DNA of 42,137 nt. It comes from Spirochaetaceae bacterium (GTDB taxonomy: Bacteria > Spirochaetota > Spirochaetia > UBA9216). The notes under the pieces are model-generated. The model saw only the letters and a list, made by a program, of their open reading frames with translations, was not told where the DNA came from and ran no database searches. Shown piece by piece: positions 2,529 to 22,994 of the stretch. A program made the translations under genes and the position numbers. The DNA is taken from contig JAQQAK010000197.1 of assembly GCA_028527945.1 (NCBI GenBank), positions 1 through 42,137 on the forward strand. The letters are read 5' to 3'. The first letter of the stretch is position 1. Every line of letters begins with the position of its first letter.

Positions 2529-2564
2529 TAGACTACAGGTAATGTGAGGTAAAGGATTAAGAAT

Positions 2565-3509: not shown

Positions 3510-3517
3510 GTAGTTGT

Positions 3518-6342: not shown

Positions 6343-6353
6343 GGAGGTTCAGA

Positions 6354-7004: not shown

Positions 7005-7132
7005 ATTGGAGCACCAGTCTTGCAACAGTATTGAAATAATTTGGTCATAGCAATTTAAGCCCTTGAGCAAAAAATCAACATTATACTATTTTATATTTTT
7101 TCACAATTTAAGTCTCTCTGAATATTTTCTTC

Positions 7133-8137
7133 TCAGCATATTCGGGGAAGAAGTTCTCCTCCGGGTTCAGGGAGCAATGTTTTGGCTCCTATTTCTGTTT
7201 TCATAACAACCCTTCCCGGCATTTCTGAGGTTACTTCTCCTATCACAGCAGCCTCCTTTGAATACGGAAGCTGTCTGAGAGTTTTTACTATCTGCTCGGC
7301 CTCATCCATTGGCGCAAAAACTACAAGTCGGCCTTCACAGGCAAGGTACAGTGGTTCAAGTCCCAACATTCCACAGACCCCGGCGACTTCTCCTGATACT
7401 GGAATCTCTTTTGAATCAAGACATATTCCTACATTGCTCTGGTTGGCAATTTCGTATAATACAGTTCCAACACCTCCCCTTGTTGCATCTCTTATTACAT
7501 GTAGTGTCTTTGTAACCTCGAGCATTTTCTCAACTGCTCCCCAAAGAGGAGCACAGTCACTTTTTATGCTTGTTTCAATCCCAAAATCTTCTCTGGACAA
7601 CAGAATAGAACATCCATGTCTTCCGATATCTCCAGTTACAATAACAGCGTCTCCTACACAGGCTTTACTTCCGGACAAGCTTATACCCTCTGCAAGCTGC
7701 CCAACACCGCTTGTTGTAATAAAAATATTATCAATCTGCCCCTTACCAGCGACCTTTGTGTCTCCGGCAACTATCTTCACACCTGTTTCTTTTGCCGTTT
7801 TTTCCATTGATGACGCAATTTTTTCAAGAATAGTCAGAGGAAAGCCTTCTTCAATAACAAAGGCGCAGGTCAGGTATAATGGCTTTGCTCCCATGCAGGC
7901 AAGATCGTTTACTGTCCCGCAAATACTTAGCTTGCCGATATTCCCTCCAGGAAACTCAAACGGTGAAACAATGAATCCGTCTGTTGAAAAAGCAATCTTT
8001 CCAGAGTCTATTTGAAGAATAGCCGCGTCATCTGCTGTAAGTAAGGGATTTGAGAAATGAGTTTTAAATACCTCATCTATCAGCATGGAAGTCTGTTTTC
8101 CTCCTGCCCCGTGTGCCAATGTAATATTTTTTTCCAT
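7133..8137 (-). CDS. hypE: Hydrogenase maturation protein HypE (carbamoyl dehydratase, PurM-like)
   Basis: The N-terminus is LAHGAGGK. The protein has PurM-like architecture and ends with the invariant PRIC motif carrying the cyanated cysteine. The ATG at 8137 overlaps the hypD stop (TAATG). Confidence 0.92.
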   Translation of the reverse strand: MEKNITLAHGAGGKQTSMLIDEVFKTHFSNPLLTADDAAILQIDSGKIAFSTDGFIVSPFEFPGGNIGKLSICGTVNDLACMGAKPLYLTCAFVIEEGFPLTILEKIASSMEKTAKETGVKIVAGDTKVAGKGQIDNIFITTSGVGQLAEGISLSGSKACVGDAVIVTGDIGRHGCSILLSREDFGIETSIKSDCAPLWGAVEKMLEVTKTLHVIRDATRGGVGTVLYEIANQSNVGICLDSKEIPVSGEVAGVCGMLGLEPLYLACEGRLVVFAPMDEAEQIVKTLRQLPYSKEAAVIGEVTSEMPGRVVMKTEIGAKTLLPEPGGELLPRIC

Positions 8138-9201
8138 TATAAGTTCCCTCCATATTGATAATAAGCTGAACATGCTCCCTCATTTGAAACCATGCATGCT
8201 CCAACCGGATGCTGTGGATTACAAATCTTTCCAAACAGTCCGCATTCTGTTGGTTTGCATTTGCCCTGAAGAATGTCTCCGCAGCGGCAGGCCGGATTAC
8301 TTTTTCCGGGAATCTTTGGAAGATTAAAACGTGTTCTTGCGTCAAAATCTTTGTAGTCGGCTCGGAGTTTCAAACCTGATTTTTTTATCTTACCAAGTCC
8401 ACGCCATTCTGAATCACAACTTTCCATTGTTTCGTTTACAAGTTCTTGTGCCGGTATATTTCCTTCGGATTTTACAACCCTTGGATAGCAGTTTTTGAAA
8501 AAAGGTTTACCCTTTTCTGACAGTTTGATTGCAACCGCCAAGGCCGTTAGAAGTTCATTAGCGGTAAATCCTGTCACAACTCCAGATACTCCTTCTTTTA
8601 CAAGGCTTTCACATACTGATGTGCCGGCTATTGCGTCTACATGTCCGGGATAAAGAAAGGCGTCCGCGCTGTTTTTTAGAATCTTGTATGCTTCTGGCAT
8701 TGTTTTATTTGCTACAAGTAAACTGAAGTTTTTGATTCCATCAGCCTTTGCCTTCTTTACAGCCAGGCATGATGCCGGAGTTGTTGTTTCAAATCCAACA
8801 GAAAGAAAAACTATTTCTTTATCCGGATGCTCTTTAGCGTATGATAGAGCGTCAACAGGCGAGTAGACCATCTTTATTGAGGCTCCTTTTTGTCTTGAAT
8901 CAGCAAGGCTCATTTTTGAGCCGGGAACCCTAAGGAGATCTCCAAATGTACAGATTACAGCCCTATGTTCAAGCGCCAACATAAGGCTTTCATCAATAAA
9001 GCCTACCGGTGTAACACAGACCGGGCAGCCTGGGCCTGAAATAAGTTTTATAGTGTCTGGCAGAATATTCCGTATTCCCAGACGAAATATCTCGTGGGTA
9101 TGTGTCCCGCATACCTCCATGATTCGTAGAGGTTTTCCTTTGTAGGATTCAATTATCTCTTTTGCCGACATTTTTTTATTTTCTATGCAAGCCGTCTTCA
9201 T
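8137..9201 (-). CDS. hypD: Hydrogenase maturation protein HypD
   Basis: It carries the conserved motifs MEVCGTHTH and GPGCPVCV and a C-terminal Cys-rich Fe-S region. The ATG directly abuts the hypC stop (TAAATG). Confidence 0.92.
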   Translation of the reverse strand: MKTACIENKKMSAKEIIESYKGKPLRIMEVCGTHTHEIFRLGIRNILPDTIKLISGPGCPVCVTPVGFIDESLMLALEHRAVICTFGDLLRVPGSKMSLADSRQKGASIKMVYSPVDALSYAKEHPDKEIVFLSVGFETTTPASCLAVKKAKADGIKNFSLLVANKTMPEAYKILKNSADAFLYPGHVDAIAGTSVCESLVKEGVSGVVTGFTANELLTALAVAIKLSEKGKPFFKNCYPRVVKSEGNIPAQELVNETMESCDSEWRGLGKIKKSGLKLRADYKDFDARTRFNLPKIPGKSNPACRCGDILQGKCKPTECGLFGKICNPQHPVGACMVSNEGACSAYYQYGGNL

Positions 9202-9408
9202 TTATAGTGACTCCATGATCTCATCAGTTTCATCTTCATCATTATCTGTAATCTTGGCGATTGCTATTCCGGCATGAACCATTACATAATCTCCCGGTTC
9301 CAGATCCTTTATAAGCTCTGCCGAGATCTCTCTTTTAGCTCCGGATGCGTCAATTATGGCCATTCCGTTATCAATTCCAATTACCTTTGCTGATAATCCA
9401 ACACACAT
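9202..9408 (-). CDS. hypC: Hydrogenase maturation chaperone HypC/HybG/HupF family
   Basis: The protein is 68 aa and begins MCVG, which places the essential Cys at position 2. SD AGGAGGG lies upstream. Confidence 0.9.
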   Translation of the reverse strand: MCVGLSAKVIGIDNGMAIIDASGAKREISAELIKDLEPGDYVMVHAGIAIAKITDNDEDETDEIMESL

Positions 9409-9419
9409 ATTATCCCTCC

Positions 9420-11735
9420 TTAAAATTCATGTTTTAAACTTGTCATTGCTATAACCGCCTGTCCAAGGGCTATAGCTCCATCGTTAGGCGGTGTCAGGCT
9501 GTGAAGCAGAACCTTGAAACCTTTCTTTTCAAGACTTAATACACACAAGGATGTAAGAAGCTTGTTCTGAAATACACCTCCACTCAACGCGCATGTATTT
9601 AGTCCAGTGCTGTCGCGGGATATCTTGCATCCCTCTGTAATCATTTCAGATAGAACTGAATGAAATTCAAACGCGAGCTGTTCCTTTTCTATTCCAGCAA
9701 GAACGGAATCGGTTATATGTCTAAAGAGCAGATCTGTGCTTAGCTCAAATTTTCTACCGTTTTTCGAGAGCATTTTCTTTGCCCATTCTTTTACGGGAGA
9801 TTTTGCTCCTTTAAAGTTTTCTGCCGCAAACTGCAAGGCCATAGCCGCTTCCCCTTCAAATGTTGAACATTTTTTTATAGAAAGAACTGCGCTTACAGCA
9901 TCAAAAAGTCTTCCGGAGCTTGTGGAGCTAACAGTATTAATGCCTCTATCTATTATTGCTCTTTGAATATTCATCTCTTTCTTTGTGCAGAGCTTAAGGC
10001 TGTTAATTATTTCTTCAGATTCATTTCCGTAAATTTGACATAGCATTGAGACGGCGATTTTCCATCCTTCTCTTGCTGAAGAATCTCCGCCGGGCTGAGT
10101 GAATGGGCAGATACTACCAAGCCTTTCAAAATCCCTGTAAGAAGCCCTGAGGAATTCTCCTCCCCATATACTTCCGTCTGTTCCATATCCGGTACCGTCA
10201 AAACATACGCCTATAACATCTTCCTTATAATTATTTTCTGCCATGCAGGAGGCTACGTGTGCCCAGTGGTGCTGTACCCTGATAACTGGAATATTCAGTT
10301 TTTCAGCAACCATGACCGAATTATATCCGGGATGTAAATCACAGGCTGCGATCTGTGGTTCTGCTTCAAGAAGTCCTTTCATTCTTGTTATGGACTCTTT
10401 AAGAGCAGTAATTGTTCGTATGTCTGAAAGATCTCCGACATACGGCGATAGATAAAAAAGATTGCCTTTTCCTATGCAGAATGAATTTTTCAATTCTCCG
10501 CCAATTCCTATAACCTGGCCGTTTAAGGTTTCTGACAACAGAAAAGGAAGGGGGGCGTAGCCACGAGATCGGCGAATCATATACGGTTTATGTTGAAAAA
10601 AGTCCATCACTGAATCATCAGCGCGAAGCAATATTCTTCGGTTATTAGAAAGTATTAGATCGCAGAAGCTTCTAATTTCGGAAATTGCGTCTTTGTCATT
10701 TCGGCAGATGGGCGCTCCTGATACATTACCGCTTGTCATAAGAAGGCAGTCAGTCATTTTTATATTATCATCGTATTCAAAAAGGAGCATATGTACCGGA
10801 GTGTACGGCAACATAACGCCTACAGTCGGATTATCTGGAGCAATTTGATTGCATAAGCTGCTATTAGCTTTCTTTGGTAACAGAATTATTGGTTTTTCAT
10901 GACCTGTAAGTATTTTTTCCTGCTCAGGTAGTATTGCACATTCTCTTTTTGCGGTATCTATATCGCGGAGCATAACTGCAAAGGGTTTAGTAGGGCGGTT
11001 TTTAAGACGTCGTAGACGGCTTACTGCCTTTTGATCTTTGGCATTGCAGCATAGGAGAAACCCTCCTATTCCTTTAACAGCTATAATCTTTCCTTCCATT
11101 ATTGCTTTTCTGGCTGTAGTTATGGCTTCACGATTTTTTTCTTTTTGACCTATAATATACAGTTCCGGGCCGCAGCTGTTGCAGCATACTGGTTGGGCGT
11201 CATACCTTCTTGTTTCAGAATGAGTGTATTCATATTCGCATTCATCGCACATTGGAAAGTCCGCCATGGTTGTTCGCTCTCTGTCGTATGGAAGAGATTC
11301 AAGGATGGTAAGTCTCGGCCCACAATTAGTACAGTTTATAAAAGGATGAAGGTAGCGCCTGTTGTTTTTGTCAAAGAGTTCCTCCCTGCATTTGTCGCAT
11401 GTTGCTATATCCGGAGATACAAAAATATCTCCACTTTCTTTCTTGCTATCTATTATTCTAAAACTATCAAAGAGTTCTTCTGTGGAATCATTGATTTCTA
11501 TTTTTATTATTGCTGACCTCTCCGGAGGAGTTTTTCTTAGCGCTTCTAAAAGACCTTTGATAGCAGATTCAGAGCCTTGTGCTTTTATCTCGACAAAAGA
11601 CCCTTTGTTTGCTACCCAGCCCTTTATTCCCAGTGCGCAGGCTGTTTTACTGACAAAGGGTCTAAATCCTACTCCTTGTACAATACCGTAAACACGAATA
11701 ACACGGGCAGCTGTAGCTATTAATTCCGCCTTCAT
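9420..11735 (-). CDS. hypF: Carbamoyltransferase HypF
   Basis: The 771-aa protein has an N-terminal acylphosphatase domain (VQGVGFRPF) and two CxxC...CxxC zinc-finger pairs (CDKC..CTNC, CDEC..CNSC). YrdC-like and Kae1-like C-terminal regions follow. The ATG overlaps the stop of the upstream nitrogenase-like gene (ATGA at 11732-11735). Confidence 0.93.
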   Translation of the reverse strand: MKAELIATAARVIRVYGIVQGVGFRPFVSKTACALGIKGWVANKGSFVEIKAQGSESAIKGLLEALRKTPPERSAIIKIEINDSTEELFDSFRIIDSKKESGDIFVSPDIATCDKCREELFDKNNRRYLHPFINCTNCGPRLTILESLPYDRERTTMADFPMCDECEYEYTHSETRRYDAQPVCCNSCGPELYIIGQKEKNREAITTARKAIMEGKIIAVKGIGGFLLCCNAKDQKAVSRLRRLKNRPTKPFAVMLRDIDTAKRECAILPEQEKILTGHEKPIILLPKKANSSLCNQIAPDNPTVGVMLPYTPVHMLLFEYDDNIKMTDCLLMTSGNVSGAPICRNDKDAISEIRSFCDLILSNNRRILLRADDSVMDFFQHKPYMIRRSRGYAPLPFLLSETLNGQVIGIGGELKNSFCIGKGNLFYLSPYVGDLSDIRTITALKESITRMKGLLEAEPQIAACDLHPGYNSVMVAEKLNIPVIRVQHHWAHVASCMAENNYKEDVIGVCFDGTGYGTDGSIWGGEFLRASYRDFERLGSICPFTQPGGDSSAREGWKIAVSMLCQIYGNESEEIINSLKLCTKKEMNIQRAIIDRGINTVSSTSSGRLFDAVSAVLSIKKCSTFEGEAAMALQFAAENFKGAKSPVKEWAKKMLSKNGRKFELSTDLLFRHITDSVLAGIEKEQLAFEFHSVLSEMITEGCKISRDSTGLNTCALSGGVFQNKLLTSLCVLSLEKKGFKVLLHSLTPPNDGAIALGQAVIAMTSLKHEF

Positions 11736-12778
11736 TTTTCAAGCCTTCCAGATACCGCAAAATGTGGAAAGTCAATAAATCGTCCATTATATTTTTTCAT
11801 TACACGCCTGAAAATTTCATCTCCAATAACTACATCATAATCTCCACTTTCTAAAATTCCTTTAAGCTGATCCTCTTCTGTAAGTCTGAAATCATGCTCT
11901 TGCATCAGGCTCTCTTTCAGCATAAACCATGACGCTACGGTGATATCAGCTTCTGTTTTTTTCAAGATTAAATCTCTAACACTATTGGCCGCTACCTGTT
12001 GGTGAATTATCAGTATTTTTTTCCCCTTTAATTCATAGAGCTCTTTTTGAAGGCTTTCCGGGATGGGTATGATATTAGTGATATAAGGAGTTCCAAATTT
12101 TTCTTTAAGGTATTCTGCTGCCTTAAGCCCCGATGGGGAAACTACAATATTTTTTTCTACTGCCGAAGCCTTTTTTATAAATTCAAGTCCGCTTCCCATT
12201 CCATAACAGGTTGTGTTTTTCCATCCTCTATTTTCTAAATATACTGTTATATTTTTTTCAGCTTCCAGGTTGCTGAAATCAAGAGGTGTTGCACCTATCA
12301 CGCCTGCACTTCCTTTCTTTACTGGTAGTTGTTCGACACTGAAGGTTTTAAAAAGCTCCAGATACGCTTGTTCTGCGCCCTCGTCATAATATCTGGTTCC
12401 GGTTGTTTCTATTGTTATAGACGGCAGTCCTGTGCGTTTTTCAGCCATTCGTTTCAAAGCCTTGAAGTCTGTAGCTATTACCGCCGGAACAGGGGTTCCT
12501 ACAAGGGTTGTGAAGTCTACATTTGTTTTGGACGCTGCATCCTGAAGTTTTTCAATAAGTTTGTCATCACGCCCAAGGATAGCATCTATATCGCGGAGTC
12601 CTGCACTAAAAATAGCGCTTTTTTTATGAAACCACCGCGGTTCATCAAATCCACATATATTTCCGGTACATCCTCCCGCGTCACAGATTACTGTAAGACC
12701 ACCAAGCTCGTATAAAACTGACACTGCGCCAGAAAGATCCGGAGCAAAGGGAGACAGCCGCTTTAAAAGATTATTCAT
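11732..12778 (-). CDS. Nitrogenase component-1-type oxidoreductase subunit, beta (NifK/NifN)-like, cassette 2
   Basis: It lies after a NifH-like/NifD-like pair. It shares N-terminal motifs with the 14869..16020 paralogue (SGxxSxLYELGGxTVxxDAxGC and DEPRW). At 348 aa it is shorter than canonical NifK/NifN. Confidence 0.7.
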   Translation of the reverse strand: MNNLLKRLSPFAPDLSGAVSVLYELGGLTVICDAGGCTGNICGFDEPRWFHKKSAIFSAGLRDIDAILGRDDKLIEKLQDAASKTNVDFTTLVGTPVPAVIATDFKALKRMAEKRTGLPSITIETTGTRYYDEGAEQAYLELFKTFSVEQLPVKKGSAGVIGATPLDFSNLEAEKNITVYLENRGWKNTTCYGMGSGLEFIKKASAVEKNIVVSPSGLKAAEYLKEKFGTPYITNIIPIPESLQKELYELKGKKILIIHQQVAANSVRDLILKKTEADITVASWFMLKESLMQEHDFRLTEEDQLKGILESGDYDVVIGDEIFRRVMKKYNGRFIDFPHFAVSGRLEK

Positions 12779-14072
12779 TTATTATTCCTCCTGACAAAGC
12801 TGTATTGAGACTTGTAAAAAGTCTTTTAACTCCTGAGTAACCAAACGGTTGGCGTTCTTCGTTCCAGTAGATTCCAGGACATTCTGAATGGTAATAGGCC
12901 GCGTCCTGGCCTATGAAGGCGTCTGCGTCTGAGTTTTCAGCGCTATGGTAGAGCATTGTTGGAGACAGGTTTGAATAGATTCTTGTTTCCGGACTTATAT
13001 CCGAAATCTTCTTTATATATGCGAAGTTTATCTCGCCTGCCGTCCCATAAATATCGGAGACTGAAAATCCGTAACGTATTAATGCCAGAGATAATTCAAA
13101 TGGATCCGCGTTTACCCATTCACCTACCGCAAATATACGATTACTATGCTTTTTGTAGCATTCCTCTATAGCTGAAAGGGCTTCGTCATAGTATTTTTGA
13201 TCATCAAACTTTATTCCGGCAGCCTCTCCAAATAGTTTATATTGAGTTTGAATTTTGTCGATCTGATACATTCTGTTTAATTCTATACCAGGAATTTCCA
13301 GTCTGTCTGCCATATCCTGTGCAGCGTATCTTGCCTCCTGATTAAGAATCAGATTAAAGTTTGCTTCGGACATCTTCATGTATTCATTAAAATTTTCACA
13401 TCTGGAAATTTCCCGGATTTGAGTGACACCCGCTTTTTTAAGCATGGTGTAGAGTTCACATTCATCATCAATAGGAGAAAAATATCCAAGCAGGTTAACC
13501 GATGTCGGCTTTTTGGGAGTAGGCTCAAGAAGAGAATAGATCGATTTTCTTACCGCGGCCATTGGAGGGAGCCTCCCTTCTCTAGTAAGGGCGTACATAT
13601 AGCATGGCAGAACTGGAATGCCCACAAATGCTGAGGCCTTCCGACATACCCGTTCCATATCGGTACCAAGAAGGGCGTCTACACATGTTATACAGATCAT
13701 AACAACAGATGGTGGTTGTTCACATGCTTCGCAAACTTCTTTAACGGCCTCTGGTATCTTTGAAAGATGGCGTCCTGTTACAATATCCGTTTCATCCATC
13801 AGCATATAGAAGAACTTGTCGGAATCGCCTTCTTTTCCTCCAGCCAATGTGGTGTTTCTTCCACAGCAGGCCGGAGCCGCAAGTAACATAACAGACCCTG
13901 GAATAGACAGCCCCGCGCGTTTGACTCCAAATCCCTGAGCACCAGGAGAATTAAAGGCTAGGGTTGCCGGAGAGCTGTAGATCATATGAGCTGAAGACTG
14001 AAGTTCTGCAGGAATATTATCCTGCCCCAAAGCCGCAAGTTGTTTTGCTGTGATGCTGTAAACATTATTCAT
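12771..14072 (-). CDS. Nitrogenase component-1-type oxidoreductase subunit, alpha (NifD/NifE)-like, cassette 2
   Basis: The size (~434 aa) and position after the NifH-like gene fit an alpha-like subunit. Cys-containing motifs are [16 protein letters not shown] and [10 protein letters not shown]. It is a paralogue of 16017..17348. I chose the ATG at 14072, preceded by GGAGG at 5-nt spacing; an alternative ATG lies at 14087. Confidence 0.7.
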
Positions 14073-14829
14073 TAGAGCCTCCGTCATTAATAAACTGCTC
14101 TGCCAGTTTCAGGAATATCTGGCTTACATGAAGCATTTTGTCTCCCTCTATAACGGTTTTTCCCATATCCTCATAGCGGATAATGTCGTCACTTCTTGGT
14201 ATATCAGCTATGATAGGGAGTCCGGCTTTATTAGCGAAATCAGTAACCTTTTCCTCTTCCCTTTCAACACTTCTCCGGTTCATCACAATTCCCTTAACCT
14301 TTGCGTAGCCACGATCTTCGAAGTTGTTTACTGCTGTGTTTATATTGTTTGCGGCATACAAGGCCATTTTTTCTCCTGACGTTACAATAATAATCTCCGA
14401 GGCATAGCCCTCACGTATTGGGGCCGCAAATCCACCACATACAACGTCTCCTAGCACATCATATAAAACAACATCGGGCTGATACTTCTTAAATAGTTTA
14501 AGATCCTCAAGAAGGCTGAATGTTGTAATTATTCCCCGTCCAGCGCATCCCAGACCAGGAGTAGGGCCGCCTGTTTCTATGCATAGAATCCCTTTGAACC
14601 CTTCCTTTGCAATATCTTCTATTTTTTCAGGTTCCCGGTCATATTCGCGTAAATAATTCATAACTGGCATAACAGGATTGCCGTTAAGCAGGTTTGTTGT
14701 AGAGTCAGCTTTTGGATCACATCCTATCTGAATTACTTTCTTGCCAAGAGCCGCAAAGGAGGCGGCAAGGTTGCTTGTAATAGTTGACTTTCCTATTCCG
14801 CCCTTTCCGTAAACAGCAATCTTTATCAT
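14065..14829 (-). CDS. NifH/BchL/CfbC-family ATPase ([4Fe-4S] reductase component), copy 2
   Basis: It carries P-loop GKGGIGKS and switch I CDPKADST, plus both cluster-ligand cysteine motifs (GCAGRGI and GDVVCGGF). Length is 254 aa. SD GGAGGA lies upstream. Confidence 0.9.
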
Positions 14830-14868
14830 AGTTCCTCCAGTATTTGTTTCTTTATATTCATAGGCACT

Positions 14869-16020
14869 TTAAATATCTCTAAAAACTGTAGCTTTTAGAG
14901 ATTCCTTTATCATATTGGGTATTTCGCTTCGATAGCATCTTCCGGAGAAGGCCTCATGCGGAAGTCGGTAAAACGGTACATCATTAGGGCAGATGGGCTT
15001 ATAAAGGGGGTCTGCTATAATTCCGGATGCAAGAGCAAGCTCTTTTTCCGCGCTTTCTTCGTCCGGAATTTCACCATCACTTTCTGCCTGCAATTCAGTT
15101 GATGTTTCAAGCGGACATAAAACCCTTGCCGTCTTTCCGTATTCCAGCTCAATAGCGCGTGCTAACGAACCGGAATAAATGCTTTCACCTACTATTGAAA
15201 GATTGCTCCCGTTTGTAAAACGTTCTGAACTCGGAAAGAGGTTTTCTTTGTTTTTTGAAGCTGTTCTCAATTTATCTGCGAGAACTCCAGCAAACTTTTG
15301 ACCGAATGGGACTCCGGTAACATATGGTGTTCCGAATCTCTTTTTCAACAGTTTTGCCGCGGAAAGCCCACTGTATGATATAACCAGATTTACACTGGCT
15401 CCGGCGGCGTTTTTTATATCTTCAAGGCTGCTTCCCATTCCCATACAGGAGACTGTGCTAAACCCCTCCGTGTAAAGCCATTGTTTTATAGATTTGATAC
15501 TTCCGTTTACAGAGAAATCAAGCGGTGTTGCACCCAGTATATTTACAGAATCTTTTTTTTGCGGCATGTTATCTTCTTTACAGAAGCGATTTATTATTGC
15601 CTCGAATGCTTCTGAGGCTCCTTTTAAATAAGAATGCATTCCATTTGTCTGTATACAAAAAGAAGGTATACCTGTGTTTTCTTCTATTTCTATAGCTAAT
15701 GCCTGATAATCTGTTCCAATCATCATTGCTACGGGAGCTCCACATAGGGCAATGAATTTGGGCGAAAGCTTACTTGCTGTTTCTGTAATATCTGAAACCA
15801 GCTTTGCATCATCCCCCATTATTGCCTCAGTTTCTGTGAGGGCGGAAATGTATACCATGCTGTCAATATCGTACCACCTTGGTTCATCGTGTGTTGTATA
15901 TGTCGAGTTGCATCCTGAAGCGTCATGAACTACTGTCATGCCTCCCAATTCATAGAGGGCAGAGCACACACCAGAGGTGTCTGCCGCGTATATTGGTATA
16001 ATTCTTGCGCTATGTTTCAT
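14869..16020 (-). CDS. Nitrogenase component-1-type oxidoreductase subunit, beta (NifK/NifN)-like, cassette 1
   Basis: It is a paralogue of 11732..12778 with the same N-terminal motifs (SGVCSALYELGGMTVVHDASGC, DEPRW). The ATG at 16020 overlaps the upstream stop (ATGA); the ORF-track start at 16026 is a TTG codon. Confidence 0.7.
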   Translation of the reverse strand: MKHSARIIPIYAADTSGVCSALYELGGMTVVHDASGCNSTYTTHDEPRWYDIDSMVYISALTETEAIMGDDAKLVSDITETASKLSPKFIALCGAPVAMMIGTDYQALAIEIEENTGIPSFCIQTNGMHSYLKGASEAFEAIINRFCKEDNMPQKKDSVNILGATPLDFSVNGSIKSIKQWLYTEGFSTVSCMGMGSSLEDIKNAAGASVNLVISYSGLSAAKLLKKRFGTPYVTGVPFGQKFAGVLADKLRTASKNKENLFPSSERFTNGSNLSIVGESIYSGSLARAIELEYGKTARVLCPLETSTELQAESDGEIPDEESAEKELALASGIIADPLYKPICPNDVPFYRLPHEAFSGRCYRSEIPNMIKESLKATVFRDI

Positions 16021-17348
16021 AAGCAACTCTCACATCCAAGCCCCTTATAGCTTATTAGCTCTTTTGTTTTTTTTGGCTTAAGGCTGGCCTCTATCATCAT
16101 TTCTGCTAACCGGATTATTCCGCTAAAACCGTATAGCCCTCCACCTGAGACTATGTTGACAAAATATGGTGTATTATTGAAATAGGCTGCTTTTTGACCT
16201 ATTGCAAGAACCTTTCTTTCTGGAATTTCTTTTTTAAGAAAACGCTTTTCAGGATGAACCGTTGAAGCTAATAAAATATTAGGCGCATGTTCTTTCAACC
16301 AAATAAAGTCTTCTTCTTCAGTAGCCACAAAGGCCTCGGAATAAATTTTTTCTACTCTAAAACTGTGTTCTGTCAGCAGCCTTGCCAAGCTTATTGGGCG
16401 TGGAGTCGCTGTGTAATCTATTGTTATGGGAAGATTTCCTATTTCTGTATGAGCCGCCTCAAGAGCCTTTTCTGCCTTTCTTATATCTTCTGAAAAATCC
16501 GGTATTTTCATATCTAATTCTACAGAAAGTCGTTTAAAATTCTCTGTTATTTCATGATATGAATAGCTTAAAGGTATATGCAGGTGTCTCTGTCCAAGGC
16601 GCCGTTCAAGTTCCTCTCCAGCAGCATAGGTTGTTGGAAGATATGTAATATTTACAGCACTCTCGGCCATATTAAGAAAGGCCTTGTAGCTTTTGCAGTT
16701 TGTAATGTCTTTTATCACAAAGCTGCTTTTTTTTATCATTGTAATAAGTCTACCTGATTGATCTGTCGGTCTATCATTTCCAATTATATTGATGCTTTTG
16801 CTGTTTTTAGGCACAGGTTTTAGCGGGCTATAGAGTTGTTTACGCATCAGGGCATCCGGAGTAAGACCACTCTTTCGCATAGTAGGAGTCATATAGCTTT
16901 CAATAAAGTCTACAGTTGGAAATCTTTTTTCAAGCTCTTTAAGCGTTATAGCAAAATCGCAGCATGCAAAAAGATGTACACAGCTTAAAAAAACTAATAC
17001 AACAGGAGGCAACGTTTCCATTTTATTCAAGATTTCTGTAGTTCCATTTACAATATCGTCTTCAAGACTCGCATCAAGAAAGTCGTTTTCACAGATTGAA
17101 ACCCATGACATCCTGTCCATGGCGTTCATTTCGGCAGCTGTTAAAATTACTCCACGAAGGCAGCCCTGTGCGCATATAAAAATTTGATGCGATTCAGGGA
17201 TAAGCATCCCTGTATGCACTATATTCCATGTTCCTCTTGCCGGAGCATTGTATTCCAGGCCTGTAATAAATGGTTCAGGAAAGGCTGCCTTTGCAATACT
17301 TATCTCAGGGGCTTTAGTTTCATTAATAGTTTTAAGACTTTTCAGCAT
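16017..17348 (-). CDS. Nitrogenase component-1-type oxidoreductase subunit, alpha (NifD/NifE)-like, cassette 1
   Basis: The 443-aa protein has Cys motifs [16 protein letters not shown] and [13 protein letters not shown]. Their arrangement resembles the three-Cys cluster-ligand pattern of NifD/NifE/BchN. It overlaps the NifH-like gene by 7 nt. Confidence 0.7.
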
Positions 17349-18109
17349 AATTGTTTCCTATAGTCAAGTTTCAGAAGCCTTTCCGCTATCTTCCTGTATT
17401 GTTTGGCCATTTCGCTTTCAGGAAAGGCTTCTATAACCGTCTTTCCGGTAAGTTCTGCTTCTTGAACGGTCGTGCTCCAGTCCAGCTTTCCTATAATTTT
17501 TGTTTCAAGATCTTCTGCGAGCTCTTTTACTTTAGCTGATTCATTTTTTACGTTACGGTTGTTTTGAATAAGTCCAGCAAGAGAGGCGTATCCTCTCCCC
17601 TGGAATCCCTCAACTGCCATAGCAATATTGGCCGCGGCATGAAGAGCCATATTTTCTCCCGATGTAATGATGAGAACCTTGTCTGTGTATCCTCCTCTCA
17701 TTGGCATAGAGAATCCCCCGCACACAACGTCTCCCAGAACGTCGTATAAAACTACATCCGGTTTGTATTTTTCGTACGCGCCCTTTTGAGCCAATTTCTC
17801 AAGAGCTGTAATAATTCCGCGTCCGGCACATCCTTTTCCAGGCATTGGCCCTCCCGCTTCAACACAAATAACATTACCAAAGCCCCGGCATACCATATCT
17901 TCCAAATCGAAATCGTTTTTATATTCTCTGACAAGCTCAAGAACAGTAGGTAGTTTTGTATTGGAATGAAGGCTTTTTGTAGAATCAGCCTTTGGATCAC
18001 AGCCTATCTGCATTACGCTGAGCCCTGTTTGTGAAAGTGCTGCTGCAATATTGGATGTAGTGGTGGACTTTCCTATTCCGCCTTTTCCATATACGGCTAT
18101 TTTAATCAT
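17342..18109 (-). CDS. NifH/BchL/CfbC-family ATPase ([4Fe-4S] reductase component), copy 1
   Basis: It carries P-loop [23 protein letters not shown] and GDVVCGGF. Length is 255 aa. The ATG overlaps the hydE stop (ATGA at 18106-18109). Confidence 0.9.
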
Positions 18110-19161
18110 GAATTATTCCTTCCTTTATAATCACCTCTTGAGATTTTTATGTCATACCCGATAGACGACATCCGTTTGCGCAAATCTATCATGCATCTTG
18201 ATGTTTCAACGTCAGAGTTTTGTTTGTTGTTGTAAAGCATGTATTTGCCCCTGACCCGACTGGGGGATAGATTTGGCATAATAACGTTTGCTCCTGCAAG
18301 AATACCTTTTTCCCGTCCTTCAGGATCGATAGTTCCAAGGGCTGTTGTTGCCGGCAGTAGAACATCCGGCAGCATAATTCTGCAAAGGCTAAGAAAGAAT
18401 AAACTTGTCTCAAGGCTTCCGGTTTTTTCAGCAGCAAATGGGGTGTCCTTATGGGGGATAAAAGGGCCTATACCTATCATTTCAGGATTAAAGTTTGATA
18501 GAAACTCCATATCCTTAACCATACAGTCTATATTCTGGTAGGGAGCTCCTACTATAAAACCACAACCTGTTTGATAGCCTGTATCTTTCAAGTCCTGTAG
18601 ACAGCGCATACGGTTTTTCCATGACTGCTTAGCGGGGTGCAGTGCTTTGTAGTGTTTTTCATCTGCTGTTTCATGTCTAAGCAGGTAGCGGTCTGTTCCA
18701 GCTTTAAACAGGTTTGTGTAATCTTCCGGTTTCAGCTCTCCCACTGAAAGAGTTACTGCTGAATCCGGATATTTATTTTTAATTTCAGAAACAATATCTG
18801 CCAGTTTATCAGTTGTAAAATATGGATCTTCGCCGCTTTGAAGAACAAAGGTTCTAAATCCCTGGGAATGGCCCTTTTGGCAGCAGTTAAGGATATCTTC
18901 TTTCGATAGTCTGTATCTGCCTATTTTAGAATTGGAATGCCGTATTCCACAATAATAACAGTCATTTTTGCAAAAGTTTGAAAATTCTATTACGCCGCGT
19001 ATATATATACTTTTTCCAAATTTTTGTAATACGACAGTTCTGGCAATAAAAGCTGCATATGTTCTATCCTCTTCTATCCAGCTGGATAAAAGCTTTTTCC
19101 ATTCTGAAGAAGATAGCCTTTTTTCTTTATTAAGACGATCAATTAATTCCATATTATTCAC
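18106..19161 (-). CDS. hydE: [FeFe]-hydrogenase H-cluster radical SAM maturase HydE
   Basis: The protein is BioB-like and ~350 aa, with the radical SAM motif in the HydE-typical context [17 protein letters not shown]. It sits next to hydF and the aspartase-like gene, as in known hyd maturation clusters. The listed start is GTG at 19161; an alternative ATG lies at 19152. Confidence 0.82.
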
Positions 19162-20434
19162 AGGCTGAATCTCTATTATTGTTTTTCAGAAGTATTTTTA
19201 GTTTTTCTTCCGCCTCAGAAGGTGTTTTGCTTGCTTTTACGATCTCTGCCACGGTGTCGTATCCCAGGACGGTGCTGTAGGAGGTGGCATAAGCAAATGA
19301 ACGTTTTAGAAGTTTTTCACAATTTATTTTGTTTGGAATCAAAACCGATATACATTTTTCATCAAAAATACATACCGCACGTTCCAAAAGATTCAGGCTT
19401 TCAAGCATAGAGTCGGCTATTAATGGAAAAAAGGCATTCAACTCAAATTCTCCATGAGCCGCTGCCATTGTTATCGCATTATCATTAGCAATAACTCGCA
19501 TCGCGCACTGCATAACCATTTCCGGAATTACTGGATTAACCTTCCCGGGCATTATGCTACTTCCTTTCTGCATTTCGGGAAGGGTTAACTCTCCAATTCC
19601 TCCCCTTGGCCCAGAGGCCATAAGGCGGATATCGTTTGCTATCTTCATCAGATTTACGGCAAGAGCCTTTAGCAGACCGGAAGTTTCCACAAAAACATCA
19701 TTATTCTGGGTGACATCCATTGGATATTCTGCCGAGGCAAGTCCTATGCCTGTGAGTTCCCGTAGAATCTCTATTATTCTGAAACGATACTTCCGCTCTG
19801 CGTTATCGTATCGACCTACTGCTGTTCCTCCAATGTTAACTTGCCTCAGACGTTCTTCAACCTTGTACAAGCGCCATCGGTCCCGGGCAATAGCTTGGGC
19901 ATAGGCTCCAAACTCACTTCCAAGAGTTATTGGAACAGCGTCCATCAGTTCTGTTCTTCCAAGTTTTTTTATCTCATCAAATTCCTTTTCTCTCGTCTGT
20001 AAGCTTTCCTGAAGTTTGGCACATGCATCGCTTAAATTTCGCAATAGTCTGACTGCTGCTATTCGAAGAGCTGTAGGGTAGACATCGTTTGTTGATTGTC
20101 CACGGTTTACATCGTTTAGTGGATGAACCAGTCTTCCTGTTTTTTCTGAAGCAGCCGTGGCAATGACTTCATTAAGATTCATATTTGTTGATGTTCCAGC
20201 TCCTCCCTGAAGGGCTTCTATGATAAAACTGTCATCAAATTCACCGTTGATAATTCTGTCGCATATTTCGGCTATACAATTGTACATTTCTGGTTTTATG
20301 TTAAGTTCTTCATATGTTAGAGCGGCCGCTTTCTTTACTACGGCAATAGCGTAAATCAAATTTATATTTGTTTTTTTATGATTCAAACTGAAATTATTCA
20401 TGGCTGATTCTGTTTCTTTTCCGTAATATGTCAT
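19154..20434 (-). CDS. Aspartate ammonia-lyase/class II fumarase superfamily protein (hyd-cluster-associated lyase)
   Basis: It carries the superfamily signature GSSIMPGKVNPVIPE. At 426 aa it is shorter than canonical AspA/FumC. The ATG overlaps the hydF stop (ATGA). Confidence 0.8.
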   Translation of the reverse strand: MTYYGKETESAMNNFSLNHKKTNINLIYAIAVVKKAAALTYEELNIKPEMYNCIAEICDRIINGEFDDSFIIEALQGGAGTSTNMNLNEVIATAASEKTGRLVHPLNDVNRGQSTNDVYPTALRIAAVRLLRNLSDACAKLQESLQTREKEFDEIKKLGRTELMDAVPITLGSEFGAYAQAIARDRWRLYKVEERLRQVNIGGTAVGRYDNAERKYRFRIIEILRELTGIGLASAEYPMDVTQNNDVFVETSGLLKALAVNLMKIANDIRLMASGPRGGIGELTLPEMQKGSSIMPGKVNPVIPEMVMQCAMRVIANDNAITMAAAHGEFELNAFFPLIADSMLESLNLLERAVCIFDEKCISVLIPNKINCEKLLKRSFAYATSYSTVLGYDTVAEIVKASKTPSEAEEKLKILLKNNNRDSACE

Positions 20435-21645
20435 TTGTCAGCTGGCTCCAGAACAGAGGCTAATCCGGGGAAAATAGCGATACTTCGTTTAAGTATTCCC
20501 TGCATATAAGCAATTGTTATTCCGTAATTTGTGAATGGAATCTTCTGATCCATCGAACATTTCATGCGGTAAACCATTTCTCTCCCTGTAAGCATGCAGC
20601 CGCCGCAATGTATGATTAAAGAATATTGTTCAAGCTCATCGGGAAATTCTGTTCCAGAAACTGTTTCAATAGAGATAGATTTTCCTGTGTAGTTTCTAAG
20701 CCACCGCGGGATTTTTACGCTTCCTATGTCATCGCATTGCCTATGATGGGAGCACCCCTCCGCTATAAGTACCCGGTCTCCGTCTTTCAGAAATTCTACT
20801 GCCGCAACGCCTTTGACTGCAGTGTTTAAAAAGCCTTTGTATCTGGCCATAAGTATGGAAAAGGAGGTTAGGGGAATATCTGGAGGAGTGTCGGCCGAAA
20901 CCTTCGCGAAGACCTGACTGTCTGTAATTACCATCGCAGGTTTTTCTCCAAGTTTTTCAAGGGTTCCCCTCAGTTCGAACTCTTTTACTACAATGGCCGC
21001 TGCGTCAGCCTCAAGGATATCTCTTATCGTCTGCTGCTGCGGGAGAATCAGACGCCCTTTTGGCGCAGCCTTATCAACCGGGACTACAAGTATTACGAAA
21101 TCGTCAGGATTAATAAGATCGCCAACAATCTGCAGCTTCGAATCTCTTACATCAATAGATTTGGAAATTTTTTCTTTTAGCTCATTTATTCCTGTTTTCT
21201 GAATAGCGCTTGTACATATTTCATGTGAATTATTTGTTGGTAGATTATCTTCAAGATCGCATTTATTTAGCACAACGATATAAGGAATATTTTTTTGTTT
21301 AAATATTTCAATCAGCTCTTTTTCACAACCATCTTGAGCTTCTGTAATATCTGTTACAAGAACTGCGACATCTGTTTTATTCAGAACCTGTTTTGTTTTT
21401 TTTACGCGCATTTCTCCAAGTTTTCCTGAATCGTCAAAACCTGGGGTGTCAATAATCATTACCGGGCCCATTGGCAGTAATTCCATTGCCTTGTACACCG
21501 GATCTGTTGTTGTTCCTTTTTGGTCTGAAACAAGAGCAATATCCTGATCTGTTACCGCGTTTACAATACTGGACTTTCCAGCGTTTCTTCGTCCGAAGAA
21601 TCCTATGTGTATACGATTTGCCGATGGTGTATCATTCATTCCCAT
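20431..21645 (-). CDS. hydF: [FeFe]-hydrogenase H-cluster maturation GTPase HydF
   Basis: The N-terminal GTPase G1 motif is GRRNAGKSS. The C-terminal cluster-binding motif is CSHH...(about 45 aa)...HCGGC. SD GGGGAGG lies 5-6 nt upstream of the ATG. Confidence 0.88.
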   Translation of the reverse strand: MGMNDTPSANRIHIGFFGRRNAGKSSIVNAVTDQDIALVSDQKGTTTDPVYKAMELLPMGPVMIIDTPGFDDSGKLGEMRVKKTKQVLNKTDVAVLVTDITEAQDGCEKELIEIFKQKNIPYIVVLNKCDLEDNLPTNNSHEICTSAIQKTGINELKEKISKSIDVRDSKLQIVGDLINPDDFVILVVPVDKAAPKGRLILPQQQTIRDILEADAAAIVVKEFELRGTLEKLGEKPAMVITDSQVFAKVSADTPPDIPLTSFSILMARYKGFLNTAVKGVAAVEFLKDGDRVLIAEGCSHHRQCDDIGSVKIPRWLRNYTGKSISIETVSGTEFPDELEQYSLIIHCGGCMLTGREMVYRMKCSMDQKIPFTNYGITIAYMQGILKRSIAIFPGLASVLEPADK

Positions 21646-21669
21646 GTTTACCTCCCCGTTTATAACCGC

Positions 21670-21709
21670 AAAAAAAAAGATAGCCGTACCCTGACGGATA
21701 CGGCTATCT
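21670..21709 (-). terminator. Intrinsic terminator-like hairpin plus U-run, lying between the TM1266-like gene and hydF
   Basis: The stem is a perfect 11 bp (21678-21688 pairs with 21699-21709) with a 10-nt loop. On the minus strand it is followed by nine T residues (21678-21670). The U-run ends 24 nt before the hydF ATG. Confidence 0.7.
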
Positions 21710-21846
21710 TGCGCTTTCGTGATTAATAGCTATATCGAACTTTCGTCTCAATAAAAATTTTGACGTCAGGTGATACTTTGCTTCAGGAACTTTTGTTCCC
21801 AATATATGTAACCGGGGTTTTTATGTCCCGATATTGTCTAATATTT

Positions 21847-22110
21847 TTAAGTGTCTGCCTTATTTATAATATTTGAATAGACTGTTTTGGCTGAAACACC
21901 ATTAAGTCTGCCAATCTTTCCTGCAAGATTGTTAATGATGTCCTGCGGGGCATCAATAGCGACGCTTATAATATTAACACCCTTTTCTTTGTATGGAAGC
22001 CCCATTCGCCCAATAATGTAAGAACCTGTTTCATGCAATAAGGCGTTAATCTGAGTTGCAGAATCTCTGCTCTCCGCTATTATTGAAATAACGGCTACTC
22101 TTGTTTCCAT
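21847..22110 (-). CDS. Small ACT-like protein of the TM1266 family (putative iron-only hydrogenase system regulator)
   Basis: The ~87-aa sequence METRVAVISII...SYIIGRMGLPY...VNIISVAIDAP matches my recollection of the TM1266-type family that accompanies hydE/F/G. I chose the ATG at 22110, preceded by GGAGGAAAC; the ORF-track start at 22143 falls inside the putative promoter. Confidence 0.65.
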   Translation of the reverse strand: METRVAVISIIAESRDSATQINALLHETGSYIIGRMGLPYKEKGVNIISVAIDAPQDIINNLAGKIGRLNGVSAKTVYSNIINKADT

Positions 22111-22128
22111 GTTTCCTCCATTTAAACA

Positions 22129-22156
22129 ATTATTCACACACATGGTTAAATGTCAA
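22129..22156 (-). promoter_or_regulatory. Putative sigma70-type promoter for the TM1266-like gene and the downstream operon
   Basis: On the minus strand there is a perfect -35 TTGACA (22156-22151), a 16-nt spacer and -10 AATAAT (22134-22129, 5/6 match). It lies about 20 nt upstream of the SD/ATG at 22110. Confidence 0.4.
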
Positions 22157-22179: not shown

Positions 22180-22994
22180 TCACTTCTCAAAAAGCACTAT
22201 GCACTCGGTAATATAATTTTCCGGCCTGCTTATTAGTATTGATCCAGGGCCTTTTACAAAATGCTCAATGATTGGAAGCTTTGGTGTATATCCCTTTTTA
22301 TGGCAGTAGTTGAAAAGCCTCAGGTATGTGCTTCCCTGTCCGCCGTAGTTGCCCCTGTAAATGGTCTTGACTGCGTGAAGGTTTTCAATGCTTTTATAAT
22401 TTAGCCCTTTTATCTGAATCTCTTTATGGCTTTCCATGCCAGCTTCCATTTTTGCTCCATCTTCCTTATATTCAAGGTTATAATAAAATCAGTAGGGTTT
22501 TCCTTTTCCATAGCGGCCGGCCTTCTTGTATAACTCTTTGAAGGCTGTTCCAATTTCATCATACCTTCCGGTTAAGGGGATGAAGAGAAAGTGGGGGATA
22601 CTGACAAGGCATTCCTGAATTTCGTGGAGGCTGAAATCTCTTCGGTTTTTATTTGCTCTTCAAGGGATAAAAGTCTGTTCTCCATCTTTTTCAATTCTGA
22701 AGCCTTTAAGCGGATCTCGCTTATTTTTTCCTGTATGAAAGATTTTAGATCTTCCTCGGCCTCACACTTTTCAAGAATTGTTTTTATCTCCTTAAGAGAG
22801 AAGCCAAGCTGCTTGAGACTGATAATTGAGTTTGCCCTGTTGAAGGAATCGTTATCGTAATAGCGGTAACCGGTCATCTCATCTATCTTCACCGGAACAA
22901 GAATGCCCAGCTCGTGGTAATACCTGAGAGTCTTTACAGTCAGTCTTGTAACCTGAGAAAATTCTCCTATTGAAAGCATTGCTCCCTCCATCAA
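22180..22994 (-). pseudogene. MerR-family regulator with a GyrI-like (BmrR-type) effector domain, disrupted by a frameshift and an in-frame TGA
   Basis: The 22572..22994 ORF encodes the MerR HTH (LSIGEFSQVTRLTVKTLRYYHELGIL) plus a coiled coil. It then runs into a stop. The GyrI-like continuation (..GRYDEIGTAFKELYKKAGRYGKGKPY*) is in another frame and hits TGA at 22489-22491. The remainder continues in that same frame as ORF 22180..22449. Confidence 0.65.

Follow-up and report, generated by a model that had tools for sequence, protein, structure and literature searches.

A nitrogenase-like gene cluster associated with hydrogenase maturation genes and a conserved leader RNA in a Spirochaetales genome and in other phyla

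Gene content and organization of the cluster

The 42-kb stretch of DNA described here (contig JAQQAK010000197.1, referred to as the window) belongs to a Spirochaetales metagenome-assembled genome (MAG; locus tag PQJ46_07260). It carries fourteen consecutive minus-strand genes, from position 22110 down to 7133, in which [FeFe]-hydrogenase maturation genes, two nitrogenase-like (Nfl) gene sets and [NiFe]-hydrogenase maturation genes follow one another. Genes were called with Pfam and NCBIfam profiles, and these searches bore out all fourteen identities proposed in a preliminary description made from the sequence alone (Table 1). Each Nfl set comprises a NifH-family ATPase and an adjacent PF00148-type subunit pair (NflH1, NflD1 and NflK1, or HDK-1; NflH2, NflD2 and NflK2, or HDK-2), as expected of the NFL superfamily. 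The cluster forms part of the [FeFe]-hydrogenase maturase regulon, and the two Nfl sets and HypFCDE stand in the position of HydG. No HydA, HydG, [NiFe] subunit, HypA, HypB, NifB or nitrogenase catalytic subunit was found in the window, and the earlier statement that catalytic hydrogenase and nitrogenase genes are missing holds for the whole 42 kb.

The genes are tightly packed. ATGA overlaps lie at 20431-20434, 18106-18109, 16017-16020 and 11732-11735, TAATG lies at 8135-8139 and ATGCTGA at 17342-17348, while the overlap ATGAATAA occurs both at 14065-14072 and at 12771-12778. Gaps of 39 nt (14830-14868) and 11 nt (9409-9419) each contain GGAGG. Every one of these junctions, including both gaps with their Shine-Dalgarno sequences, was exact on re-reading. 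HydE is joined to NflH1, and NflK2 to HypF, by overlaps within the 4-8-nt range of translational coupling. At the head of the cluster, the promoter candidate is followed by the TM1266 start codon, an ATG at 22110 with a GGAGG Shine-Dalgarno sequence before it. The proposal of a single operon needs qualifying: a leader with an attenuator separates TM1266 from hydF and the twelve genes after it. The reported lack of a hairpin with a T-run is correct downstream of hydF, the region for which it was worded.

Table 1. Features of the cluster in the window, listed in the direction of transcription
Feature	Position	Strand	Evidence and remarks
Sigma-70-like promoter candidate	22129..22156	-	TTGACA-16-AATAAT, 11/12, best of the region; consensus match only; just 5' of TM1266
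TM1266-family small ACT-like protein, putative [FeFe]-hydrogenase maturation regulator	21847..22110	-	PF21699 101 bits; TIGR03959 106 vs cut-off 61; PDB 2NZC E 1.7e-11
Leader RNA hairpin	21709..21784	-	Covariance model R1 match, 63 bits
Intrinsic terminator/attenuator with T9	21668..21710 (stem 21677-21710)	-	15 bp, -25.5 kcal/mol
HydF, H-cluster scaffold GTPase	20431..21645	-	TIGR03918 573 vs cut-off 326; CxH...HCxxC kept
Aspartate ammonia-lyase-like enzyme (AspA)	19154..20434	-	PF00206 277 bits; NF008909 509 vs cut-off 510
HydE, radical-SAM H-cluster maturase	18106..19161	-	TIGR03956 525 vs cut-off 255; CX3CX2C invariant
NflH1, NifH-family ATPase	17342..18109	-	PF00142 288 bits; [4Fe-4S] ligands C94, C130
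NflD1, very divergent NifD/E-like subunit	16017..17348	-	Homologues, NifE profile match, AlphaFold2 fold
NflK1, NifK/N-like subunit	14869..16020	-	PF00148 112 bits
NflH2, second NifH-family ATPase	14065..14829	-	PF00142 297 bits
NflD2, NifE-like	12771..14072	-	PF00148 102 bits
NflK2, NifN/BchB-like	11732..12778	-	PF00148 match
HypF carbamoyltransferase, all four domains	9420..11735	-	TIGR00143 761 bits, above cut-off
HypC-family chaperone	9202..9408	-	TIGR00074 60 bits, above cut-off; C2, H45 invariant
HypD, Fe(CN)2CO scaffold	8137..9201	-	TIGR00075 398 bits, above cut-off; CGxHxH, GPGCPVC and C-terminal cysteine motifs kept
HypE, carbamoyl to thiocyanate dehydration on C-terminal PRIC cysteine	7133..8137	-	TIGR02124 424 bits, above cut-off; C346 invariant

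Distribution and modular architecture

The taxonomic distribution of the cluster is broad. Relatives of NflD1 number more than 3,600 among 90%-identity clusters and are encoded by 398 species in a scan of one genome per GTDB species. Three look-ups of such relatives, in Clostridiaceae bacterium BL-3, a Lentisphaeria MAG and a very abundant metagenome-only organism, each revealed the same cluster. The 80 best loci among NflD1 relatives were mapped with the 14 window proteins and are the basis of the following counts. Both HDK sets occur together with the Hyp genes in 44 of the 80 loci, whereas 11 loci with sufficient flanking sequence contain HDK-1 only, accompanied by HydE and an embedded ATP-binding cassette (ABC) importer and lacking HDK-2 and Hyp; a further 24 lie on contigs too short to classify. 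HydE is present in 67 loci, TM1266 in 63 and HydF in 22.

Three architectures can be distinguished. The full type has the order TM1266-[HydF]-[AspA]-HydE-H1D1K1-H2D2K2-HypFCDE, and a Caproicibacter MAG shares the 14-gene order of the window exactly. The half type begins with the genes for TM1266, a FecCD permease, a fusion of an ABC ATPase with a TM1266-like domain, and HydE, and continues with H1D1K1, a Peripla_BP_2 binding protein and, in some loci, HydF. The third type, H2D2K2-HypFCDE-H1D1K1, is found in acetogenic Clostridium, C. ljungdahlii and C. carboxidivorans P7 among them. Three contexts centered on NflD2 agree with this. Because the same gene order is repeated across phyla (Spirochaetales, as in the window, Clostridiaceae, Ruminococcus/Hominimerdicola, Caproicibacter, Lentisphaeria/Victivallales, Synergistaceae and acetogenic Clostridium), the adjacency lies far beyond chance. 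The three modules were rightly described as linked, the link being a functional one, and the adjacency is not a peculiarity of this one genome.

The cluster consists of two sub-modules. More specifically, TM1266 and HydE, with or without HydF and AspA, go with NflH1D1K1, and HypFCDE go with NflH2D2K2, and both pairings hold in at least four phyla amid entirely different flanking genes. The suggestion of one shared product for all three modules is too strong in view of the eleven loci that carry HydE and HDK-1 without the second sub-module.

Several variants of the cluster were also observed. The importer genes of the half type lie at 6089-8193 and 12458-13600 in locus L035 and at 6086-8226 in L085, with L036, L040 and L073 alike. 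The TM1266-like domain is C-terminal on the importer ATPase, and such an attachment of a sensor domain suggests that the TM1266 fold may bind the imported compound or a downstream small molecule. A single 700-aa protein combines NflH1 and NflD1 in Clostridiaceae BL-3, C. lapidicellarium and C. aromativorans (L001, 10001-12103; also L008 and L009), direct evidence that the NifH-like ATPase NflH1 acts on the D-like subunit NflD1. Clusters of the Ruminococcus/Hominimerdicola type (L018, L033, L042, L059 and L071; 15558-15959 in L005) have an extra acidic 133-aa protein without a Pfam match between NflK2 and HypF. L005 has in addition a cupin between HypD and HypE (19630-19959), and FeoAB stands just 5' of most clusters of this type.

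Leader RNA and attenuator

A leader of about 200 nt lies between TM1266 and hydF and contains a conserved hairpin followed by the strongest terminator of the region. This terminator ends about 25 nt 5' of the hydF Shine-Dalgarno sequence and leaves no space for a promoter between them; thus, the 13 downstream genes must be read through the attenuator. The leader has a folding z-score of -6.7. Its motif, CCUGACGYCRAAA, a loop and UUGAGRCGRAAG, is found 3' of TM1266 in at least 24 distinct loci from four phyla, and RNAalifold folds it into a hairpin with two purine-rich internal loops. A covariance model built on the leader matched 62 times in 1.37 Mb, always on the cluster strand and at the 5' end of the cluster. 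Pairing in the hairpin reaches 95.9%, a value somewhat inflated by an alignment that was fitted to the covariance model, compared with 25-55% in slid controls, and none of 500 shuffles attained the observed score. Two pairs exhibit strong compensatory change (GC/AU 35 vs 21; CG/UA 32 vs 26). No Rfam family matched the leader at the gathering threshold; matches returned in E-value mode are chance only and arise through the terminator. The terminator apex, CGUCAGG, is complementary to CCUGACG of the motif, and the Lentisphaeria counterpart is CCCCUG with CAGGGG. This complementarity suggests that the two elements may form an expression platform.

The leader was also seen at L001, L003, L005, L011-L028, L035 and others, usually with a terminator following, and a pattern scan of metagenomes with the motif yielded 120 further loci (L088-L207). 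In these the motif adjoins a TM1266 gene except in eight short or cut-off contigs, and HydF or HydE then follows. The leader is common to nfl-hyp clusters and to canonical hydF-hydE-hydG operons, and one motif locus adjoins a group A6 [FeFe]-hydrogenase gene. As a candidate riboswitch or TM1266-binding attenuator, the leader would gate expression of the cluster, probably jointly with the TM1266 protein.

In two metagenome contigs (L169 and L129), TM1266 and the motif precede a different three-gene ABC transporter (binding protein, permease and ATPase), and a group A6 [FeFe]-hydrogenase gene (NF040763, 770 bits) lies about 3 kb away. The position of this transporter behind the motif indicates that the motif regulon extends past the maturases.

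Alternation of Nfl genes with HydG

Among the 42 motif loci that contain HydE and at least 1.2 kb beyond it, HydE is followed by Nfl genes in 30, by HydG in 11 and by another gene in one, and in none of them do HydG and Nfl genes occur together after HydE. The HydG proteins of the 11 loci are bona fide members of TIGR03955 (917-945 bits). Neither the window nor any of the 80 NflD1-anchored genome loci contains HydG; four open reading frames of 460-474 aa near clusters, considered as HydG candidates, are instead MATE, ComEC-like or SPASM radical-SAM proteins.

HydE is an orthodox equivalog in every cluster type (504-557 bits), and the catalytic motifs of HydE, HydF, HypC, HypD and HypE are invariant among 24-68 homologues per protein. 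By neighbour-joining the HydG-linked HydE proteins cluster, yet their distance to the Nfl-linked ones (0.33) overlaps the within-group range of 0.11-0.42. An aspA gene adjoining hydF is typical of hyd operons, and AspA supplies the nitrogen of the dithiomethylamine bridge (PMC11736057). Orthodox HydE and HydF, AspA and the shared leader and TM1266 together indicate that the hyd part is an ordinary H-cluster maturase operon minus HydG. This part of the fusion first proposed is not exotic.

The Hyp module

HypFCDE travel with NflH2D2K2, and neither HypA, HypB nor a [NiFe] structural gene is adjacent in any related locus or forms a conserved gene family among these loci. Canonical HypC has proline at position 6. 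The HypC of the window (N-terminus at 9391-9408) reads MCVGLS, and Ser6 is at least 80% conserved among 36 homologues linked to nfl genes, which may point to a client different from the [NiFe] large subunit.

A 2022 survey of Clostridium acetogens lists the nfl-linked HypCDEF as the [NiFe] maturases and reports HypCDEF without HypA or HypB in 5 of 8 species (PMC9431212). According to the same survey, cluster-bearing species possess both [FeFe] and group 1a [NiFe] hydrogenases, and C. carboxidivorans has a second HypCDE set together with HypAB beside its [NiFe] hydrogenase (PMC9431212).

Placement and conserved residues of the Nfl proteins

The two Nfl sets are mutually closest paralogs, with 50% identity between the H proteins, 23% between the D proteins and 34% between the K proteins. 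The best solved relative of NflH1 is MarH (239 bits), with NifH nearly equal (about 230) and BchL at 141. The cysteine pairs C94/C130 of NflH1 and C95/C131 of NflH2 are invariant among 68 and 46 homologues, respectively. NflK1, NflD2 and NflK2 match PF00148, and the best solved relatives of NflD2 are a nitrogenase alpha chain (9p1x) and NifE (E-values 1e-9 to 1e-11). NflD1 has no Pfam match of its own; it is placed in the family by homologues that carry PF00148 and by a family profile that matches NifE. An AlphaFold2 model of NflD1 (predicted local distance difference test, pLDDT, 79.5; predicted template modeling score 0.80), which is informative at the level of the fold only, aligns with NifK, NifN, NifE, MarD and BchN at template modeling scores of 0.56-0.65 and no more than 16% identity.

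Conserved cysteines are numerous. NflD1 has invariant or near-invariant cysteines at 59, 63, 123, 130 and 218 and in a C-terminal GC439xxC442L; of these, C59/C63, C130, C218 and the tail are additional to the interface-cluster positions. NflK1 has an invariant C39 and also C21, H34, H46 and H357; NflD2 has invariant cysteines at 74, 75, 132, 135, 148 and 162, a near-invariant C119, and H107 and H400; and NflK2 has an invariant C32-x4-C37-x4-C42 with H259 and H339. Positions of P-cluster type are occupied by C74/C75 of NflD2 (alpha-C88), C135 of NflD2 (alpha-C154), and C37 of NflK2 and C39 of NflK1 (beta-C95). The NflD1 C-terminus (16017-16046, ending ...KGLGCESCL) is predicted to be disordered, with pLDDT below 50, and its two cysteines are 91-96% conserved. 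Flexible CxxC tails are typical of cluster hand-off proteins, and in its position the NflD1 tail resembles the CxxC found at the C-terminus of cluster-transfer proteins and of the [NiFe] large subunit.

No characterized clade includes the Nfl proteins, as the preliminary description had implied: they fall short of every NCBIfam equivalog cut-off for Nif, Vnf, Anf, NifEN, BchLNB/XYZ and CfbCD and resemble MarD only remotely. Against the NifD and NifK models they score at most 38 bits (cut-offs 427-654); true nitrogenases have six P-cluster cysteines and the FeMo-cofactor ligands alpha-C275 and alpha-H442, of which the Nfl proteins retain just alpha-C88, alpha-C154 and beta-C95, and C218 of NflD1 is not aligned with NifE C250. 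Scores for CfbC are 312 and 293 against a cut-off of 402, for CfbD at most 29 against 268, for BchL 202-210 against 345 and for BchB at most 59 against 490. MarD (9fmg_A, 9d9u_A) matches NflD2 only with an E-value of 0.003 over about 70 residues, and its Foldseek identity to NflD1 is 12-13%.

Flanking genes

Between 25330 and 31932 of the window lies a Peripla_BP_2 gene next to a cobalamin nucleotide-loop/salvage block comprising DBI_PRT/CobT-type, His_Phos_1 (CobC-type), CobS and CobU genes, a CobD-like aminotransferase (by position) and a CobD/CbiB-family protein. The Peripla_BP_2 protein (25330-26475) was considered as an ortholog of the binding protein embedded in HDK-1-only clusters; at only 20-26% identity it probably belongs with the cobalamin genes instead. 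A cytidylate-kinase-like gene beside hypE recurs in L209 and in none of the 80 genome loci, and the recurrence is regarded as coincidence. A minus-strand MerR-family regulator of 140 aa is followed after 122 nt by an 89-aa open reading frame without a family match (22180-22994), which we take to resemble a GyrI-type effector domain; the pair may represent a single gene with a frameshift or result from faulty assembly. On the plus strand, 912-6342 encodes a five-gene Opp/Dpp/Nik-type ABC transporter (SBP_bac_5, two permeases and two ATPases), convergent with the cluster and about 0.8 kb from hypE.

Possible roles of the Nfl proteins

The functions of the genes are established at the family level, and the order of the pathway is inferred from them. 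A NifEN-like scaffold for a CO/CN-iron cofactor, one of the options raised at the outset, is still the best reading, and we hold it tentatively. The Nfl pairs would act as NifH/NifEN-like, ATP-driven scaffolds or reductases in the assembly of such a cofactor, with an [FeFe]-hydrogenase encoded elsewhere as the likeliest acceptor. HypF and HypE would convert carbamoyl phosphate to cyanide, and HypC and HypD would hold an Fe-CN-CO unit. NflH2 would pass electrons by ATP hydrolysis into NflD2K2, a NifEN-like scaffold or reductase for this unit that may also make or fix the CO ligand. HydE would then apply its radical chemistry to the Fe-thiolate-CO/CN species so formed, NflH1D1K1 serving as a second scaffold that depends on ATP, and HydF, with ammonia from AspA, would finish and deliver the binuclear CO/CN-iron subcluster. 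Such a route would replace or supplement HydG and would not need tyrosine.

The conserved linkage, the leader shared with hydEFG operons, the orthodox maturases and the association of HypFCDE with NflH2D2K2 all favor this reading. The cost of ATP is trivial in a biosynthetic role. The CxxC tail of NflD1, the embedded importers of iron-chelate type and the FeoAB genes beside the Ruminococcus type are all consistent with a scaffold function. Systems in which a NifH-type partner serves cofactor biosynthesis include NifEN, DPOR, COR and CfbCD (PMC13474568). Since the HDK sets are closest paralogs in the manner of NifDK and NifEN, and several NifH partners are biosynthetic, the prior favors a role of this kind.

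A number of points weigh against it. Ten proteins in place of a single HydG is unparsimonious, and the exclusion of HydG and Nfl holds only at the level of the operon and not of the genome, a HydG candidate having been reported in some related Clostridium species. The clusters that contain HDK-1 without Hyp genes indicate that HDK-1 is there independent of neighboring Hyp proteins. Moreover, Hyp chemistry yields Fe(CN)2(CO), while the known substrate of HydE is Fe(CO)2(CN)(Cys). A fully defined in-vitro H-cluster maturation is reported to work without any Nfl protein (PMC12501116).

Alternatively, the Nfl proteins may be the end users of the cofactors, which is possible though rather unlikely. 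NflD1K1 would receive a [2Fe]-type subcluster by way of HydE and HydF and NflD2K2 an Fe(CN)2CO unit by way of HypCD, and, each having its own NifH-like ATPase, they would represent a new class of ATP-dependent organometallic reductases or a hydrogenase-like enzyme with the nitrogenase fold. This possibility would account for the lack of a catalytic hydrogenase in the window and in about 200 related loci, one motif locus excepted, and for the dedicated NifH and separate maturase set of each HDK set. The invariant cysteines also exceed what one interface [4Fe-4S] cluster would need (C59/63/123/130/218/439/442 in NflD1, seven in NflD2 and three in NflK2). The S6 subtype of HypC is distinct, the absence of HypA, HypB and the endopeptidase is to be expected where there is no nickel and no [NiFe] large subunit, and ten extra genes fit an enzyme with its maturases better than a substitute for HydG. 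However, ATP-driven catalysis would be expensive for fermenters and acetogens, the leader RNA and TM1266 are common to ordinary hydEFG operons, and to our knowledge HydF has no client but HydA. Attenuator control and embedded metal importers look biosynthetic, and no gene related to a substrate is conserved nearby. The more specific claim that NflD1K1 and NflD2K2 are organometallic enzymes of common human-gut, rumen and acetogenic bacteria, with CO/CN-iron cofactors installed by HydE/HydF and HypCDEF, driven by NifH-like proteins and controlled by the leader RNA, is in our estimation unlikely.

It is more doubtful still that the genes are merely co-regulated and share no chemistry. The hyd and hyp genes would then mature ordinary [FeFe]- and [NiFe]-hydrogenases, while the Nfl proteins would reduce an unrelated substrate (for example an imported metal chelate, a tetrapyrrole or a sulfur compound), all of these genes being iron-hungry, anaerobic and jointly regulated. 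The Clostridium acetogens with the cluster have both types of hydrogenase, and the genomes of five encode no HypCDEF besides these (PMC9431212). Sulfur compounds or, according to a proposal, tetrapyrroles are the substrates of other Group IV and VI nitrogenase-like systems (PMC13474568). The FecCD/Peripla_BP_2 importer of the HDK-1-only clusters and the cobalamin salvage genes 5 kb from the cluster in the window point the same way. Against this, the coupling overlaps at HydE/NflH1 and NflK2/HypF and the phylum-spanning retention of both pairings amid entirely different flanks imply more than joint regulation, and in C. carboxidivorans the second HypCDE serves the [NiFe] locus. Neither HypA/B nor a substrate-pathway gene is conserved with the cluster, and the binding protein of the window is too divergent from the embedded ones (20-26% identity) to be counted with them.

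Lastly, it is improbable that the Nfl proteins are only ATP-driven low-potential electron pumps, which reduce radical-SAM clusters or convert CO2 to CO for HypCD and have no scaffold role: conversion of CO2 to CO is within the capacity of NifH and nitrogenases, no settled anaerobic source is known for the CO ligand of [NiFe] maturation and each HDK set does pair with one maturase set, but E. coli and most hydrogenase-bearing organisms manage without such proteins, the additional invariant cysteines and the CxxC tail of NflD1 would be left unexplained, and the idea overlaps the favored scaffold role, from which sequence cannot separate it.

The cluster gives one large unassigned nitrogenase-like clade a concrete chemical context, namely CO/CN-iron chemistry. 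If the Nfl and Hyp proteins act as scaffolds that replace or feed the role of HydG, they would provide a tyrosine-independent route to the H-cluster, and a route independent of HydG might account for the difficulty of finding HydG in some acetogens with active [FeFe] hydrogenases. If the Nfl proteins are instead clients of the cofactors, they would form a new class of metalloenzymes bridging the nitrogenase and hydrogenase worlds. Gut and rumen organisms commonly carry the cluster (one protein cluster has about 4,700 member sequences and another about 5,200), and because it is present in genetically tractable acetogens of industrial use (C. ljungdahlii, C. carboxidivorans), the competing mechanisms are directly testable. 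The leader RNA, in turn, gives TM1266, an orphan of structural genomics, a testable function in the control of hydrogenase maturation.

Comparison with known systems

The canonical maturase operon (TM1266, HydE, HydF, HydG and AspA) shares with the window orthodox TM1266, HydF, AspA and HydE, the same leader and the same gene order; in contrast, the operon of the window lacks HydG and has six Nfl genes and HypFCDE instead. The [NiFe] Hyp machinery is matched in that the four Hyp proteins of the window score above their equivalog cut-offs and keep every catalytic motif. It differs in that HypA/B, the endopeptidase and the large and small subunits are missing from every nfl locus, in the S6 of the window HypC and in the translational coupling of HypF to NflK2.

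Among nitrogenase-related systems, the NifH/NifEN scaffold, which matures the FeMo-cofactor of nitrogenase, shares several features. NifE is among the best solved relatives of NflD2 and the sole one of NflD1, and both systems have a dedicated NifH-type ATPase, duplicated DK-like pairs and an interface cluster site at alpha-C88, alpha-C154 and beta-C95. Structural identity is nevertheless at most 16%, no equivalent of NifE C250 or NifD C275 exists, and the Nfl loci lack NifB, NifX and NifV, their partners being Hyd and Hyp maturases and not radical-SAM carbide insertion. DPOR/COR, CfbCD, MarHDK, IsrHDK and Nfa likewise combine a NifH-type ATPase with PF00148 partners, and the NflH proteins are most like MarH and NifH; the Nfl D and K proteins, however, reach only 15-70 bits against model cut-offs of 268-1229, and their gene context is neither sulfur nor tetrapyrrole metabolism. 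In Group VI (the Elusimicrobia type of Meheust 2020), NifH is sister to Group V (BchL/X) and many radical-SAM/B12 genes lie nearby. As judged by scores and context and not by a tree, NflH differs in that it scores about 230-240 bits with NifH and MarH and a much lower 141 with BchL, and the gene context differs as well; both differences speak against membership. The cluster is unlike any characterized nitrogenase-like system. Several Group IV clades and all of Group VI are without a verified or proposed function, which a July 2026 review in Chemical Reviews calls the greatest challenge of the field; that review makes no mention of HydE, HydF or Hyp among nitrogenase-like systems (PMC13474568).

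The architecture itself had been noted before. Full-text literature, in which subscription papers are mostly outside coverage, gave as the only treatment of Nfl with Hyd or Hyp proteins a one-sentence remark by Dos Santos et al. (2012), with a supplementary figure, on NifHEN-like pairs with hydrogenase maturation proteins in Coprococcus catus GD/7 as well as Dorea longicatena, both Firmicutes (PMC3464626). The original statement that no characterized system has this architecture therefore stands as to characterization and falls as to the architecture. The 2012 clade has two linked H-E/D-N/K sets adjoining hydrogenase maturation genes; its D/E-like subunit has two conserved cysteines and its K/N-like subunit has one (PMC3464626). 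The window shares these membership features, including the two P-cluster positions in the D-like and the one in the K-like subunit, a likeness judged by features and not by direct comparison with the Coprococcus and Dorea sequences. A role in metallocluster assembly was also suggested in 2012. The Hyd/Hyp division, the sub-modules, TM1266, the leader RNA and the relation to HydG do not figure in that account. With the window the range of the cluster grows to include Spirochaetota, and related loci add Lentisphaerota and Synergistota. The new elements are the modular structure and breadth across phyla, the operon-level alternation of Nfl with HydG, a leader RNA without earlier record and, through this leader and TM1266, the link to the H-cluster regulon.

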